IMG/VR virus record: IMGVR_UViG_2695420914_000005
Direction: 5' to 3' (one strand)
DNA from: a virus
Taxonomy: Duplodnaviria > Heunggongvirae > Uroviricota > Caudoviricetes
Length of the DNA stretch: 64,000 nucleotides
Part shown: positions 9,901-15,900 of the stretch, piece after piece
How positions within the stretch are numbered: position 1 is the stretch's first letter
How the letters are laid out: each line of letters starts with the position of its first letter
Position numbers: made by a program

Positions 9901-12900
9901 ACTGATCGAGCCGAAATCAGTGGTTTCTGGCGCTACACCGGTAATGCGTGATTCCGAACACTTCTTCTTTGATCTGCCTTCTTTCAGCGAAATGTTGCAG
10001 GCATGGACCCGCAGCGGTGCGTTGCAGGAGCAGGTGGCAAACAAAATGCAGGAGTGGTTTGAATCTGGCCTGCAACAGTGGGATATCTCCCGTGACGCAC
10101 CTTACTTCGGTTTTGAAATTCCGAACGCACCGGGCAAATACTTCTACGTCTGGCTGGACGCGCCGATTGGCTACATGGGTTCTTTCAAGAATCTGTGCGA
10201 CAAACGCGGCGACACTACCAGCTTCGACGAATACTGGAAGAAAGACTCCACCGCCGAGCTGTACCACTTCATCGGCAAAGATATCGTTTACTTCCACAGC
10301 CTGTTCTGGCCTGCCATGCTGGAAGGCAGCAACTTCCGCAAGCCGACCAACCTGTTTGTTCATGGCTATGTGACGGTGAACGGCGCGAAGATGTCCAAGT
10401 CTCGCGGCACCTTTATTAAAGCCAGCACCTGGCTGAATCATTTTGACGCCGACAGCCTGCGTTACTACTACACTGCGAAACTCTCTTCGCGCATTGATGA
10501 TATCGATCTCAACCTGGAAGATTTCGTTCAGCGTGTGAATGCCGATATCGTTAACAAAGTGGTTAACCTGGCCTCCCGTAATGCAGGCTTTATCAACAAG
10601 CGTTTTGACGGCGTGCTGGCAAGCGAACTGGCTGACCCGCAACTGTACAAAACCTTTACTGATGCCGCTGAAGTGATTGGCGAAGCATGGGAAAGCCGCG
10701 AATTTGGCAAAGCTATCCGTGAAATCATGGCACTGGCTGACCTGGCTAACCGCTATGTTGATGAACAGGCTCCGTGGGTGGTGGCGAAGCAGGAAGGACG
10801 CGATGCCGATCTGCAGGCGATTTGCTCTATGGGCATTAACCTGTTCCGCGTGCTGATGACGTACCTGAAACCGGTACTGCCGAAACTGACTGAACGTGCA
10901 GAAGCATTCCTGAATACAGAACTGACCTGGGATGGTATCCAGCAACCGCTGCTGGGCCATAAAGTGAATCCGTTCAAGGCACTGTATAACCGTATCGATA
11001 TGAAACAGGTGGAAGCACTGGTGGAAGCATCCAAAGAAGAAGTGAAAGCCACAGCTGCACCGGTAACTGGCCCACTGGCTGACGACCCGATTCAGGAAAC
11101 CATCACCTTTGACGACTTCGCCAAAGTTGACCTGCGTGTGGCGCTGATTGAAAACGCGGAGTTTGTCGAAGGTTCTGACAAACTGCTGCGCCTGACGCTG
11201 GATCTCGGTGGTGAAAAGCGTAATGTCTTCTCAGGCATCCGTTCCGCTTATCCAGATCCACAGGCACTGATTGGTCGTCACACCATTATGGTGGCTAACC
11301 TGGCTCCGCGTAAAATGCGCTTCGGTATCTCTGAAGGCATGGTGATGGCTGCTGGCCCCGGCGGGAAAGATATCTTCCTGTTAAGCCCGGATGCCGGTGC
11401 TAAACCTGGCCACCAGGTTAAGTAATTAAACAACCTCTCTTCGCAATGCCCGGCAACACACCGGGCATTTTCATATAGACACAATCCCTCCTGATTTACA
11501 CAAACCCTAAAACAATTTGTTTTCTACCTTTTGTTGATTGAGATAATAAGCCACATAAGAAAACAACTTGTTTTGGAGTAGTTGAAATGTTGAACATTAC
11601 CCAAGCCTACCAGGTGGCATTGATCAGTTCATCTCATACATCAGAGGAAGATGCTCGCCGATTCATGATCGCAAGCAATGAGCTGGATTGGGTTTCACAA
11701 ATTGATGGCGGTTGTATTGTTCACGCCGGGTTACAGGATGATGTCTGGAAAGACGACTTGCGTCGATATGGTATATCCGAAGGCGCGATTGCTAACATTC
11801 AGAAAGTACTTGATGTAGGCTTTGACTCTGTACATTTTGATTGTGGAGCACCAGTCGTTGAAGGGCTTGAGTGCTGGAACTGGTAACAGATATTAAAGCA
11901 TTGGTAGTTTGTTTTTAGGATTATCAAAGAAATGAAAAAGTTGAAAAGTTTAGAAATCCCTGGGACTGGTTATAAATTCTTTATGGACAACGCGGAGTGT
12001 GCGCCTAACGCGTTGGAAAAAATACAAAGTCTTATCAACAGCCTTACTGAAGAAGCGAAAGAACTGAAGAGCGAGGCGACAAAGGACAATACAGCTAAAA
12101 TCCAATGCTTAAATCTCGTTTCTTATTGTTTATATCAAGTGTCCAAAACACTGATTAAAGGCAATATCTATTACGACGATGAAGACACCTCGACACCTGA
12201 AGAAAAAGATAGCGATGAAGAACTCTATGAAGATATCTCTACCAGTGCGGGTCACGCTGCCTTCGATGCTATGGGTGAATCGTCAGGCATCAGATCGTTT
12301 GTTGAACAGAACAATTCGACAATAATGATTGAGTACTGTGAACAAACAAGCTCCAAGGCCATACATGTTCTTCACGATGTTGCTGCAGGGGTTCGCTGTG
12401 AGGCTGAAGCGGTCAGAAAAGATGTATTTGGTGCAGACAGTAATACCGTGAAAGCGTTCATCAACAGTGCTCTGCTAAATTCTTACTCAAACCTTATCGT
12501 CAATGCGGCACTATGCGCAAATTCAGGTGAAGAACACATTGTCATAACTGAAACCAAACATGAGCATCAACAGTCACCAACCATAGAAGAGGTAACTGCA
12601 TTGGCTATAAAACAGGCGAGTGAAATTAGTGATGAAATTCTCTCTCTGCTAAACAAAACTATGTAAAACATTGATAATGGCGGTCACAATTTGATTCTTT
12701 TCTATAAGAATCCGTTGATCGCCACTACTCCCCTTCCATAGCTGCAATCATATCTTTAAATATCAATAGGTTATGGTTGTTTATACAAATAAGAAAACAA
12801 CTAAATAACAGATCAACGAAACGTCAACGCTTTCACCCGATTTGGTCTAAAAAATTGACGTTTTCACACATCACTTCTTATACCCGTAACTCTACGCAGC

Positions 12901-15900
12901 AGACAGCGCCACAGCGTCCAATTTTCACCACAGACGACCCAACACACTACCAACAAAAACACACGCTCAAAATCGCTCCCGTTGCGTTACACAACCATAT
13001 AAACAACTTATTTTCAGGCATAACAAAACAACTAAATAACACACATGCCATTCCCAAAAACAACCAACCTCTTTATGGCAGGCTACCGAAAAGACCCACC
13101 TCTTCTCCCCAGGCTACCGGACAACCAACCTAACTTTCACAGGCAATCCGAAAACATTCATACGCGCGATACCCACGACACGCCATTCCCCAAATAGCGA
13201 AGCACACCAGAATCACTGAAACCCCCAACGAAGTCTGTAACCGCAAGGTTTCTCTCAATCCCAAAGGACACGAAACAGAACAATCACGGGAAACGCCATT
13301 ACCCAATACACGAATAACTACAAAAGCCTTTCACACACTCCAGACAAACAACTCAAACACAATAACGAAAGGAATCGCCCACCTGCCATTACTCCATACA
13401 CGGAGAAGAACAATCACCAAAACGACGAGAACACCCCATAGAAGAACCACCGCAAAACGAACGAAACCACATACACCGACAGAGAAAACAACACACCCAA
13501 TTCACCAACAGAAATAGTCGCCGTATAGAACATTCTGGAAGGAGTGAGCATTAACGCCTATAGAGAGGTTGAGACAGATAAAACACAACATGTATAGCGA
13601 AGAAGCCAGGTATGTATAAGTGGGGAGGGAAGGAGGGGTGTCGCCTCCTTTTTCGTATTTATTCAACTCCTGATTTTATCCCCCCGTAACACCCCTACGG
13701 TCAGCCTTCGGTCCATACAGGGAAAAGGTTGCATCCCGCTACAGAAACGGCTGGGTTGCCTTCGGGGAACGGCTGGAGGTTTTCAGGGAAACGGTCGAGT
13801 TGCCTGTGTGGATTTCGGGAAAAGGCTCGATGCCGGTTCAGGAACGGTGGCGTACCGGTATAGCGAGAGGGAGAGTTGCGGCTACCCACCTGTAATGTGC
13901 GGGAAGAAGAGAGGCGCTCACGTAGGCGGACTCGCTTACCGCTGGATTCCCTCTGAATGCCCAGCTACAGCGTAATTGTGCCAGACAGCCAACGGGTCAC
14001 AATCGATTTCAGTAGGTTTTTGGGGAGAGGATTACTCTGCCACCAGCCACTTTCGGCCACTAAATCAGAATAATGTAAAAAGTGTACTCGGTACTGAACC
14101 TGAAAACTCACTGCCAAAACCACATTCACCGGAATAAAATCCTTTTCCGCCTTTGTCTTATTGCGATAATAACACCAACAAGTAAACAACATGTTTAGAC
14201 GTTATATAAACGAAGTGAGGATGAAGAGATGATTAAGATGCCTGTGACGGTTGAGGTGTGGGGCGTGGATTCCCTGGCTGAGTGTCTGGATGCAGTGGGG
14301 CCGGAGTTGTACCGCAAGTTGTGGTCGTTCGTCCCGGCAGAAGGGGAATCGCCCAAAGGGAAGGATATCTGGCACCTGCTGAGTGAAGATGAAAAGCGGG
14401 AGCTGGTGGACGCGGTACACAGCGAGTTCCCGGGCGACGAAGATTAAGAGTGAGGCCACCAGCACGGTGGCTTTTGTCGCTATTAACCTCCGGGCAGCGC
14501 AGCACCGTAACGATATACTTTGTGGCCGTTTTCTTACTGGTATTATTTACGCAATTCAGAAAACAACATGTTTAAGGATTGCGTTATGTTTGCAAATATC
14601 GACATCAACCAAATCAAGAAAATGACTCAAAAAGAGTTTGACCAGTTTTATGAGTTAGAAGGTTGGTCTTCCACGCTGATCAATTCAAGATGGGTGCTGG
14701 AACTGATGACTCGTGATGACGCACCTGCTTTGATGATTTGCGACATGGGTGAAGATGCTGACTTTATGGATATGAGCGAATTTTGTGTGGACACATACAA
14801 CCGCAGCCAGAAGTACTACTTCACATGCGATAGCGAGAATGACGTTATTTCTAAGGTCTATCTTCACCTCGTCCAGCATTGGGACGTTCAGGAGTTTCTT
14901 GAAGTATTCGAGTAACCCCAACCAAAGCCAGCATTGCTGGCTTAATTTCTCTATAGCCGCAGGGAAGAACCTGCATACCGCTCATGCACCTGATCAATAT
15001 GCTTTGTAGCCGTTTTCTTACTGGTATTATTTACGCCATTGAGAAAACAAGTTGTTTACGGAGTTGTAATGAAAAAATCATTGGTTCTTGGTCTGGACAA
15101 AGACCAGAAGAGAAAAGAGAAGCCTGCGCTGGTTGCTCAATTAACTTTGCTGGACATCGTTGCCAATGGGACCTCTATTCGTCTGTTCCGTGAAACAGCG
15201 GTGTCTTTCGATAAAAACACCTTTACTCGTTATGTAATGAATGTTCGTCGCCAGCGTGGAAAAGGCTGGGTGGCATTTCAAAGAATGTGGCCGGAACATC
15301 AGCTCGAACTGGCTTTGATGGAAGTTAACCGCGTGGCCCAGCAAGAGATTCAGAGAGCATCAGTGATGGCAATAGCCTGATAATGTGCAAGTGGCAATTA
15401 GTCGACAGTACGACAGCCCCGCCATCCTTACGGGGCTTTTTTGTATTGTAAGTACATACTTACGATCATAGAATATAAAAATAATCAAAACACTACGGAG
15501 AGTGAAATGACCGTTAAACGCGAAAAACTGACAGTTGATGTTTACTATGCCTCTGAAACCGCCGAAGGTAAGAATGTGGCAAAAATCACCGTTGTTACGT
15601 ACAACACCGAAACTGGTGCCGAAGTCCAGGCCAGTACGATCGTGCGTAAAGGTGATGCCTCCGGCGGCGAGTACGCGACTCAATACCAGTCCATTCTCGA
15701 TGCAACTGACCCGCTGCTGCTGAAAATCGAGAACTACTTCCGCCAGGTTGATGAAGAGGTGTTTGAAACCATGATGAATATGGTTAACACCGTATTCGCC
15801 TCCAGCCTGAATACCAACACTACCTGGATTGGTCAGTACGGCCTGCGCATTACCTCTGGCATTCCTGCCGACACCTTAATCCCTGAAAGCGTATTCGCTT

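Follow-up and report, generated by a model that had tools for sequence, protein, structure and literature searches.

A conserved A/C-rich noncoding tract of SSU5-type phage-plasmids, with composition maintained by selection and a possible role in Rho loading

SSU5-type phage-plasmids carry a 650- to 750-nt tract, rich in A and C on one strand, that is real, noncoding, and conserved across the whole SSU5 group, and its composition is under selection. The tract most likely acts as a single strand, and its plus-sense transcript is probably an unfolded, C-rich RNA and a candidate substrate for Rho loading. Our leading interpretation, to which we assign a probability of roughly 35%, is a Rho-loading barrier that would separate a cargo gene active in lysogens from a conserved control region; for this reading, we infer the sense of transcription, the involvement of Rho, and the purpose of the barrier.

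The window, meaning the whole 64-kb stretch of DNA that was analyzed, belongs to an SSU5-type phage-plasmid and is identical at the tract region to Escherichia coli plasmid pERB3f3. Positions 12780 to 13530 consist of A (0.398), C (0.318), G (0.124), and T (0.160). Their A+C content of 0.719, against a mean of 0.501 (standard deviation [SD], 0.029) over all 751-nt segments, is the peak of the entire 64 kb, about 7.5 SD over the mean; this agrees with the initial annotation, which described a top strand dominated by A and C, with few G residues and a composition unlike its surroundings. The most extreme 751-nt segment begins at 12782, and the nonoverlapping runner-up reaches only 0.59 A+C. The GC skew is −0.42 to −0.50 and the AT skew +0.25 to +0.61. 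Positions 12780 to 12890 are milder in skew than the core (from about 12890 to 13530) and carry regulatory-looking motifs. The tract lies within a 1.56-kb gene-free gap that is present in all SSU5-group elements, with plus-strand genes around it. The gene immediately to its left is nonhomologous from clade to clade and therefore marks a variable cargo slot. The features of the region are as follows (window coordinates, strand, and description).

12671-12725, plus strand: Block A, the left border of the conserved module, an invariant nested imperfect palindrome
12789-12832, unstranded: operator-like half site AAGAAAACAA-cTAAATAACA with two CGTTGAY motifs, nearly all columns in agreement
12855-12884, plus strand: candidate rightward promoter, with TTGACG (12855-12860), an 18-nt spacer, and TATACC (12879-12884)
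12890-13530, plus strand: core A/C-rich, G- and T-poor tract, marked by composition, conservation, selection, weak folding, and no open reading frame (ORF)
13001-13013, unstranded: copy of the dispersed operator palindrome AAACAA-nn-TGTTT, with one mismatch
13047, 13182, 13295, and 13385, plus strand: four GCCATT(A/C)C boxes inside the core tract
13057-13153, plus strand: D1 array A, three tandem 30- to 31-nt units ACCnACCTCTT-N5/6-CAGGCTACCG
13364-13530, plus strand: most sequence-conserved part of the tract, unstructured, ending in AATAGTCGCCGTATAGA
13612-13660, plus strand: conserved GTATAAGTGGG and a purine-rich block (GGGGAGGGAAGGAGGGG), where the strand skew flips
13718-13860, plus strand: six iteron-like direct repeats CAGGGAAAmGGCTGG, mostly in a 22-nt phase, present in all clades
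13975-14002, minus strand: candidate leftward promoter, with TTGTGA (14002-13997), a 16-nt spacer, and TGg-CACAAT (−10 at 13980-13975)
16569-16662, plus strand: D1 array B, a second three-unit array

The tract had been described as holding no credible ORF, and it does not: no frame is kept between clades, and the variable columns lack 3-nt (codon) periodicity. Open frames occur in every reading frame because stop codons are scarce at such a composition. One of them, a 118-amino-acid ORF with a TTG start (12777-13133), is CYRAN_103 in the annotation of phage Cyrano; PGAP calls no gene there in the identical plasmid.

In comparisons of the window's clade with three others, the tract retains 61 to 71% identity, versus 35 to 42% at the saturated 4-fold sites of neighboring genes in the same comparison. 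About half of its columns (313 of ~640) are invariant, and those that vary freely are still 62 to 70% A+C in all five clades. The segment at 13364-13530 shares 80% identity even with phage SSU5. A function would have been disfavored had close relatives lacked the tract or shown no constraint on it; the whole SSU5 group has it, under constraint. A natural IS1 insertion occurs in a single case, at the equivalent of 13421-13429 in plasmid NZ_CP083480.1, a complete 111.7-kb (111,656-bp) record.

Recent changes run against the composition. Among within-clade changes in the tract, those from A/C to G/T number 148 versus 48 in reverse when polarized by outgroup and 148 versus 65 when polarized by minor allele (binomial P = 1e-8 for the latter), so that changes toward G/T are two to three times commoner than back-changes. 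The flanks are balanced (148:139 and 122:115; Fisher's test of tract versus flanks, P = 1e-4). The most unbalanced change is the loss of C (70 C>T versus 14 T>C). Since per-site change rates in the tract equal those in the flanks while the flux runs toward G/T, mutation bias cannot maintain the composition, and selection does. The earlier view of the strand asymmetry as abnormal and biologically meaningful is supported. The asymmetry suggests a function as a single strand, since duplex binding sites would not call for a strand bias in the sequence between them.

The plus-strand RNA of 12890-13529 has a minimum free energy of −0.120 kcal/mol per nt with 71% of its bases unpaired and is the weakest folding of 396 windows taken from both strands (mean, −0.290 kcal/mol per nt; SD, 0.035; 39% unpaired). 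C exceeds G by at least 15% in every 100-nt window from 12801 to 13530, the longest such run on either strand (730 nt versus 340 nt for the next longest). The preferred loading substrate of Rho (rut) is C-rich, untranslated, unfolded RNA, and ordinary rut sites span about 70 to 90 nt. The tract RNA is C-rich and G-poor over at least the ~70 to 80 nt expected of a rut site, has little structure, and is not translated, and its physical properties thus fit the C-rich noncoding RNA or Rho-loading region that the initial annotation had put forward. A structured RNA, proposed alongside, is not supported: an Rfam search of 11000-18000 gave no match except a subthreshold Hrs1 elsewhere, the fold z-scores of the tract are unremarkable (−1.1 and +0.18), and no consensus structure emerges for its best-conserved part (alifold energy, −1.5 kcal/mol). 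YC dinucleotides number 14.4 per 100 nt, versus a window mean of 11.1 ± 3.9, and their count of 92 compares with 101 ± 6 in mononucleotide shuffles, i.e., no excess beyond composition.

At the left border, Block A is built from an outer stem, GGCGGTCA (12679-12686) with TGATCGCC (12716-12723), and an inner stem (12693-12699 with 12706-12712), followed by C-rich sequence with no U-run. It is invariant in all clades despite the nonhomologous gene to its left; the window sequence has a folding energy of −19.1 kcal/mol, and alifold retains the outer stem. In RNA-seq data from a Cyrano lysogen of LF82, the upstream gene CYRAN_102 reaches 59 FPKM in LB and ~587 FPKM in condition B6, and CYRAN_103, which covers the first 357 nt of the tract, reaches 0 FPKM in LB and ~2 FPKM in B6 (PMC9928086, S1 table). 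The hairpin of Block A is the sole element between these two genes. Further right, the candidate rightward promoter is preceded by an A-run; its two hexamers are invariant, and its spacer varies between clades. The −10 hexamer is without the usual final T, which is why the promoter scan omits it.

Under the Rho-loading interpretation, rightward transcripts would start at the cargo gene, and perhaps also at the tract's own promoter-like element, pass the Block A hairpin, and continue into a bare C-rich stretch hundreds of nucleotides long. Loading there, Rho would release RNA polymerase ahead of the repeats and early genes, and exonucleases would cut the unfolded RNA back to the Block A hairpin. 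The region to be shielded, right of the tract, would be a cis-acting control region with the iteron-like repeats, a possible lytic origin, and repressor-controlled early promoters, and the motifs embedded in the tract would be phage-protein sites within the barrier.

Several observations bear on this interpretation. Speaking for it are the plus-strand orientation of the neighboring genes, the position after the cargo slot, and the drop in RNA level from CYRAN_102 to CYRAN_103 across Block A. Speaking against it are a length eight times that of an ordinary rut site, the invariance of half of the columns, which a function of composition only would not need, and the YC count at composition expectation. 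The rightward promoter-like element is also noncanonical, the canonical conserved one being leftward; other operons of the phage are separated by ordinary hairpin terminators; and in one Klebsiella type, the upstream gene faces away from the tract.

The embedded motifs are probably binding sites of phage proteins (D1 units, GCCATT boxes, and operator). Short repeats of the CAGGCTACCG type had been noticed before and are found here as the three ~30-nt units of D1 array A, the first two of which rank with its best-conserved stretches within the tract. An 85-bp duplicate had been placed at 16586-16670; a second copy does exist, as D1 array B, and is a diverged array rather than an exact duplicate (73 to 78% identity between 13056-13131 and 16570-16658; BLAST E = 1.7e-8). 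Array B is preceded by a terminator hairpin (16537-16568) and followed by the operator-controlled promoter of a gene for a 160-amino-acid protein, for which Pfam, PADLOC, and PDB sequence searches gave no match. The paired arrangement is maintained in SSU5 and Klebsiella relatives. In type III toxin-antitoxin systems, tandem repeats of ~30 to 45 nt are transcribed immediately ahead of a ToxN/AbiQ/CptN/TenpN toxin gene; the D1 arrays do not fit this pattern, array B standing after a terminator and before a promoter and the 160-amino-acid protein giving no match in the searches named above. The GCCATT boxes of relatives are extended, reading GCCATTACyCAATACACGGAGAAGAACA. At 12789-12832, the five clade consensuses are alike at almost every column; the CGTTGAY motifs there are on the minus strand (ATCAACG, 12812-12818; GTCAACG, 12823-12829), and the half site recurs at 13020-13041 (family D9). 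The operator palindrome has 14 sites in the window, nearly all just upstream of operons, and the copy within the tract is conserved in relatives, most of which have it in perfect form.

To the right, only in the E. coli clade do positions 13627-13654 make a convincing terminator-like hairpin with a T-run. The candidate leftward promoter, the only canonical conserved promoter near the tract, would read through the iteron-like repeats toward it; in three clades, its hexamers are kept and its spacer varies, and in the SSU5/Enterobacter type, a small minus-strand gene takes its place. A second cluster of CAGGGAAAmGGCTGG repeats lies at ~17278-17357. The initial annotation had envisaged a replication or incompatibility locus adjacent to iterons, and this reading is not supported: the true RepA iterons, TATGCTGTCAGCGG, are ~37 kb away on the circle together with the RepA gene, outside the window (in pERB3f3, they flank repA at positions 1-1650 and at ~110.7 kb), and a different set of repeats adjoins the tract. 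The IS1-bearing plasmid, a single case, likewise remains a complete record with its tract interrupted. An R-loop-primed origin of the ColE1, T4, or mitochondrial type, which calls for a favored hybrid between the template and a G-rich, G-clustered transcript, was also considered and rejected on ordinary hybrid energies (RNA-DNA hybrid minus duplex by nearest-neighbor parameters, z of −0.85 and +1.36 for the two directions) and the lack of G-quadruplex motifs.

Part of a lytic origin is a possible, if doubtful, alternative. Here, a phage initiator would bind the repeats at 13718-13860, and the tract, opened by that initiator or by transcription from the flanking promoters, would become a hairpin-free single strand onto which the phage helicase, primase, or single-strand binding proteins could load. 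The other D1-plus-iteron module, located 3.5 kb downstream, would play the enhancer role that crr has for the P4 ori. The six phased 22-nt repeats do adjoin the tract, the strand skew changes sign exactly between the two, and there are two pairs of a D1 array with an iteron cluster, an arrangement conserved across E. coli, SSU5, and Klebsiella elements. With a DnaE, helicase, toprim protein, exonucleases, and RNase HI of its own, the element requires a lytic origin separate from the RepA replicon. Selection against self-pairing would make sense for a platform of single-stranded DNA no less than for an RNA, and the IS1 insertion, tolerated by the plasmid state, fits a role confined to the lytic cycle. 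However, reading the alignment by eye revealed neither a DnaA box nor an AT-rich unwinding element that is conserved (a single DnaA-like 9-mer, at 13806, lacks conservation), and the G+C content of the tract, 44 to 48%, is unlike that of known unwinding elements. Neither direction has a special RNA-DNA hybrid advantage by the z values above, G-quadruplex motifs are missing, the neighboring small proteins include no recognizable initiator gene, and the large-scale GC skew makes no origin-type switch at the tract.

It is unlikely that the tract is a purely double-stranded array of protein sites, a nucleoprotein platform (for the prophage repressor, a D1-binding regulator, or a GCCATT-box protein, for example) whose skew is a by-product of one-way direct repeats. 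Such an array would account for the conserved motifs in direct orientation (the operator family, the D1 units, and the four GCCATT boxes), for the spacing of the D1 units at about three helical turns, for the many invariant columns, and for D1 array B, whose place between terminator and promoter is typical of a DNA site and not of an RNA. It does not explain why the freely varying columns remain A/C rich or why changes toward G/T are purged tract-wide, which the spacers of duplex sites do not require; moreover, a search for helical periodicity in the tract was negative, and the most conserved 167 nt (13364-13530) hold only one recognizable repeat unit.

We consider it improbable that the tract encodes a trans-acting long noncoding RNA of the lytic cycle, either a sponge for Rho, Hfq, S1, or cold-shock proteins or a molecule pairing with G/U-rich targets. 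In the E. coli clade, a promoter-like element and a downstream terminator-like hairpin would bound a unit of ~770 nt whose RNA would be nearly fully single stranded, with its primary sequence conserved without conserved structure. Against this, (ARN)n, AAnAAnAA, GGA, and YC motifs are at the level of shuffled sequence, the terminator is not conserved beyond that clade, the signal in lysogens is essentially zero, and the inverted matches within the window included no conspicuous complementary target. Finally, a nonfunctional oddity (a decayed-gene relic, a cryptic satellite, or a local mutation bias, as when deamination of an exposed strand produces an A+C/G+T skew of the type seen here, e.g., in vertebrate mitochondrial DNA) is highly improbable and already contradicted by identity far above that of neutral sites, flank-like per-site rates with a net flux opposed to the skew, A/C-rich variable columns, the lack of tandem or cryptic periodicity, and the lack of similarity to the 160-amino-acid gene that holds the matching place in the second module.

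Returning to the Rho-loading interpretation, the tract resembles Rho-dependent terminators (lambda tR1, trp t', and the rho and mgtA/corA leaders) in its C-rich, G-poor, weakly folded, untranslated RNA, in following both an expressed gene and a hairpin that might shield a processed 3′ end, and in preceding genes that must stay silent. Unlike a typical rut site of ~70 to 90 nt, it extends over ~650 to 730 nt with half of its positions invariant across genera, contains embedded direct repeats, and is depleted of U, which Rho does not require. As in P4 ori/crr and P1 incC/incA, two phased direct-repeat clusters a few kilobases apart are conserved together, but those beside the tract are not the repeats of the element's RepA, and neither P4 nor P1 is known to have a long A/C-only flank. 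The recurrence of AAACAAnnTGTTT before many plasmid-prophage operons, and also in the tract, recalls the dispersed C1 operators of phage P1, although the SSU5-type operator is palindromic and different in sequence. With the sponge RNAs CsrB/RsmZ and CrcZ, the candidate long noncoding RNA shares low structure and repeated motifs; unlike CsrB and CrcZ, it has no enrichment of GGA or A-rich motifs and is not an abundant lysogen transcript. Like the vertebrate mitochondrial light strand, one strand is rich in A+C and the other in G+T, but where mutation pressure shapes the mitochondrial strand, the flux in the tract opposes the skew, and selection holds it in place.

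The stretch at 12780-13530 has a base content of 39.8% A, 31.8% C, 12.4% G, and 16.0% T, in agreement with the A/C-dominated, G-poor top strand described in the initial annotation. Its A+C content of 71.9% is the maximum among all 751-nt windows (mean, 50.1%; standard deviation, 2.9), the next independent window reaching 59%. Strong skews of the amino/keto type accompany this composition: AT skew reaches +0.6, and GC skew, about −0.45 in the tract, turns positive within about 100 nt at a purine run, 13618-13640. The tract is the longest run of C over G in the window (730 nt versus 340 nt for the next). 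The purine run, GGGGAGGGAAGGAGGGG, which follows immediately after the tract, shows partial complementarity to the D1 units, a family of tandem repeats, at their CCTCTTC core. The tract is real, conserved, and maintained by selection, not an artefact and not ordinary intergenic DNA.

Around the tract, the window is 100% identical to Escherichia coli plasmid pERB3f3 (NZ_MW590712.1; 110,850 bp; blaCTX-M-15). Phage Cyrano (pLF82) is about 96% identical to the region, and Salmonella phage SSU5 is related; these matches place the window within an SSU5-type phage-plasmid. Such elements carry resistance genes (blaCTX-M-15 in this one) and are frequent in clinical Escherichia, Klebsiella, Salmonella, and Enterobacter. 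To our knowledge, neither their lysis-lysogeny switch nor their lytic origin has been mapped, and a literature search found no paper describing the tract region. The element also carries an Mrp/ApbC (MinD-like) ATPase gene (8134-9234, − strand), which is CYRAN_99 and is expressed in LF82 lysogens, and a full methionyl-tRNA synthetase gene (9263-11425, + strand).

The tract lies in a gene-free gap of 1.56 kb (12667-14228); a 244-aa gene precedes the gap and a 72-aa gene follows it, both read from the + strand. The gap is also found in Escherichia, Salmonella, Enterobacter, Citrobacter, and Klebsiella relatives and in SSU5 itself, and all of these retain the skew (A+C, 66 to 71% over 300 to 700 nt). 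The genes on the right are conserved. The gene directly on the left is a different, nonhomologous one in each clade, which marks this position as a cargo ("moron") slot. Across the window and L007 to L013, the product of this slot is coiled-coil (244 aa), membrane-like (186 aa), or secreted-like (172 aa); SSU5 has a 399-aa protein there, and a reversed DUF262 gene is a further occupant. The following anatomy was derived from a 10-sequence and then a 52-sequence alignment.

11932-12666: cargo slot gene, here the 244-aa coiled-coil protein; sharp right border at 12671
12671-12725 (+): Block A, left border of the conserved module; invariant nested palindrome without a U-run
12789-12832: operator-like half site and two CGTTGAY motifs
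12855-12884: candidate promoter TTGACG-18-TATACC; hexamers invariant, spacer variable, −10 noncanonical
13001-13013: one copy of the palindrome AAACAAnnTGTTT
13057-13153: D1 array A, three units of about 30 nt, with CAGGCTACCG as part of the units
Four sites within the tract: GCCATT(A/C)C boxes
13364-13530: very conserved A/C-rich segment
After 13530: conserved purine-rich block at which the skew flips; a good terminator in the E. coli clade only
13718-13860: six iteron-like repeats (CAGGGAAAmGGCTGG family) in a 22-nt phase; second cluster at about 17278-17357
13975-14002 (−): conserved candidate leftward promoter TTGTGA-16-TGgCACAAT

Block A was compared by eye with Xer/dif-like and sigma-54 sites and matches both poorly. 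A second conserved candidate leftward promoter lies at about 14158-14196 (− strand), where the extended −10 TGtTATTAT overlaps the operator at 14184. Both candidate leftward promoters would direct transcription across the iteron-like repeats toward the tract.

Truncated copies of the tract occur in large Klebsiella IncFIB/IncHI1B plasmids of 120 to 270 kb (L003, at 4870-5640; L004; L005). These contain Block A and the left two thirds of the tract and adjoin a DUF262 gene and a type I restriction system. The copy is cut by insertion sequence (IS) elements, and its DUF262 neighbor is the same gene as in one Klebsiella phage-plasmid, indicating a captured fragment of a Klebsiella phage-plasmid.

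The check for conservation in related phage-plasmids proposed in the initial annotation found the tract to be present and constrained. Its identity is 61 to 71% when the window's clade is compared with three others (77% for an intermediate sequence, L074), versus 35 to 42%, or saturation, at 4-fold sites of the flanking genes (comparisons free of the near-identical g72). Overall nucleotide identity of the flanking genes g312 and g396 is 49 to 72%, with most comparisons at 60 to 65%. Of about 640 tract columns, 313 carry the same base in each of the five clade consensuses. Within-clade changes were polarized by two methods, using outgroup clades or taking the minor allele as derived, with the flanks as an internal control; the two methods agree. 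Outgroup-polarized changes in the tract number 148 from A/C to G/T and 48 in reverse, an imbalance that parsimony errors could somewhat inflate; the flanks gave 148 and 139. Minor-allele counts were 148 versus 65 in the tract (binomial test, p = 1e-8) and 122 versus 115 in the flanks (p = 0.70); Fisher's test of the tract against the flanks gave p = 1e-4. Per-site change rates equal those of the flanks, so mutation erodes the skew, and an origin of the skew in mutation bias is contradicted by change counts that run against it. Variable columns also keep the skew (A+C, 62 to 70% in all clades). Since the skew persists in all clades despite this erosion, selection maintains a strand-asymmetric composition. 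A duplex needs no such composition, and the tract therefore most likely functions as a single strand. This mutation-flux test shows that selection, and not mutation, can be what keeps a strand skew extreme.

The scarcity of stop codons leaves many frames open in the tract, yet none is conserved between clades, which bears out the earlier view that there is no credible ORF. Two 11-nt indels separate clades within the tract, and no codon phase was found in its variation. A coding or pseudogene reading was rejected on the lack of a conserved frame, the 11-nt indels, the lack of codon periodicity, and the lack of similarity between the tract and the second module's 160-aa gene. When 396 windows on both strands were compared, the + sense RNA of 12890-13529 proved the least foldable, with a minimum free energy of −0.120 kcal/mol per nt versus −0.290 ± 0.035 for the window set and 71% of bases unpaired versus 39%. 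Expression values, as log2(FPKM+5), are available from the RNA-seq S1 table for LF82 carrying Cyrano (PMC9928086). The upstream cargo gene, CYRAN_102, has values of 6.0 in LB and 9.2 in condition B6 (about 59 and 587 FPKM), and CYRAN_103, an annotated ORF over the first 357 nt of the tract, has values of 2.32 and 2.85 (0 and about 2 FPKM). This drop suggests that the RNA ends within about 110 nt, over a hairpin without a U-run.

The best-supported reading, to which we give a probability of roughly 35%, is that the tract specifies a Rho-loading RNA zone that would act as a barrier. Rho (reviewed in PMC12360218) would load on the unfolded, untranslated, C-rich RNA, the loaded tract would separate the cargo slot from the conserved control region, and the embedded repeats would bind proteins. 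YC dinucleotides in the tract are not enriched beyond composition.

The main rival, which we consider possible though rather unlikely, is that the tract belongs to the lytic origin, where it would offer a single-strand platform free of hairpins next to the iteron-like repeats. The short repeats of the CAGGCTACCG type reported earlier are indeed present as the three units of D1 array A. The 85-bp duplicate placed at 16586-16670 corresponds to a real second array, although it is a diverged paralogous repeat array (73 to 78% identity; E = 1.7e-8) and no copy. Each D1 array is followed about 650 to 730 bp downstream by an iteron-like cluster, and the two pairs lie 3.5 kb apart:

13057-13153 and 13718-13860: first module, with D1 array A in the tract
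16569-16662 and 17278-17357: second module, with D1 array B

The pair was found twice in every clade examined, including SSU5 and Klebsiella, and may be a two-part cis element, e.g., an origin plus an enhancer. A type III antitoxin role for the D1 arrays was rejected (wrong position, no toxin match), as was a partition-like system with the upstream gene as cognate binding protein (gene nonhomologous between clades).

The plasmid replicon itself lies outside the window, in pERB3f3:

L089 1-1650 and L088 15726-15831: RepA gene (364 aa), with TATGCTGTCAGCGG iterons on both sides (at least 15 copies)

Gene and iterons together form the real plasmid replicon. It flanks plasmid position 1, about 37 kb from the tract, and its iterons differ in sequence from the repeats beside the tract, which form another family; the proposed replication or incompatibility locus adjacent to the iterons is thus not supported, and the RepA incompatibility reading was rejected. 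In NZ_CP083480.1 (L210), IS1 interrupts the tract where its conservation is highest (equivalent of 13421-13429; 9-bp target duplication), and the plasmid is still a complete record of 111.7 kb (111,656 bp), also lacking the 244-aa and 72-aa genes. Together, these points make a role in plasmid maintenance or incompatibility unlikely. A lytic replication role is possible, given that the element encodes replication genes itself.

The 13-nt palindrome AAACAAnnTGTTT (often AGAAAACAAnTTGTTTTCT) has 14 sites in the window (2519, 7572, 11510, 11561, 13001, 14184, 14561, 15045, 15948, 16712, 26056, 26081, 56784, and 60020), nearly all just upstream of operons, where they overlap a −35 that follows a terminator hairpin or lie some 13 nt past an extended −10. 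By its placement, the set looks like a dispersed repressor regulon. One repressor gene was annotated:

19593-20195 (−): PHROG "transcriptional repressor" gene

A 77-nt promoter-operator cassette precedes successive small early genes (14502-14578, 14986-15062, and 16653-16729); the first two copies share 86% identity. That the tract, with its embedded sites, is purely a duplex protein-binding array is doubtful given its selected strand asymmetry.

A structured noncoding RNA, an earlier candidate, is not supported: the tract has no Rfam match, neither strand folds better than shuffled sequence, and the most conserved part has no consensus structure. A trans-acting RNA from this conserved tract is improbable, and a sponge for Hfq, Crc, or CsrA was rejected because their binding motifs are not enriched. 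Elsewhere, 17764-17830 (+ strand) has a subthreshold match to the small RNA family Hrs1 (24 bits versus a gathering score of 56; E = 0.24), probably by chance. Also rejected were a G-quadruplex or i-motif (no motif in the tract), curved DNA or a cryptic satellite (no helical or other periodicity, no tandem repeat), and an R-loop hot spot (ordinary RNA-DNA hybrid nearest-neighbor energies). A nonfunctional relic is very improbable given the conservation.

A more speculative proposal, and an unlikely one, is a new kind of cis element in which several hundred bases are selected against any pairing or promoter formation on either strand. It would be an obligatory "bare strand" landing strip, as RNA or opened DNA, in the lytic switch or origin of SSU5-type phage-plasmids. 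Such a strand could trap or load Rho or a phage helicase beside the iteron-like repeats, and its many invariant positions would serve phage proteins as recognition points on the single strand.

No conserved noncoding region near the early genes is larger than this gap, and the neighboring protein genes are less conserved. The gap brings together an operator, two families of repeats, iteron-like repeats, and a bare strand maintained by selection. A Rho-dependent barrier would show how a prophage insulates its lytic genes from an exchangeable cargo slot; a place in the lytic origin would offer a handle on induction and copy-number bursts. The palindromes resemble the C1 system of phage P1 in that putative repressor sites are dispersed across the element. 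Compared with an ordinary terminator, the length of the tract, its U depletion, and its many invariant positions argue for something more specific.
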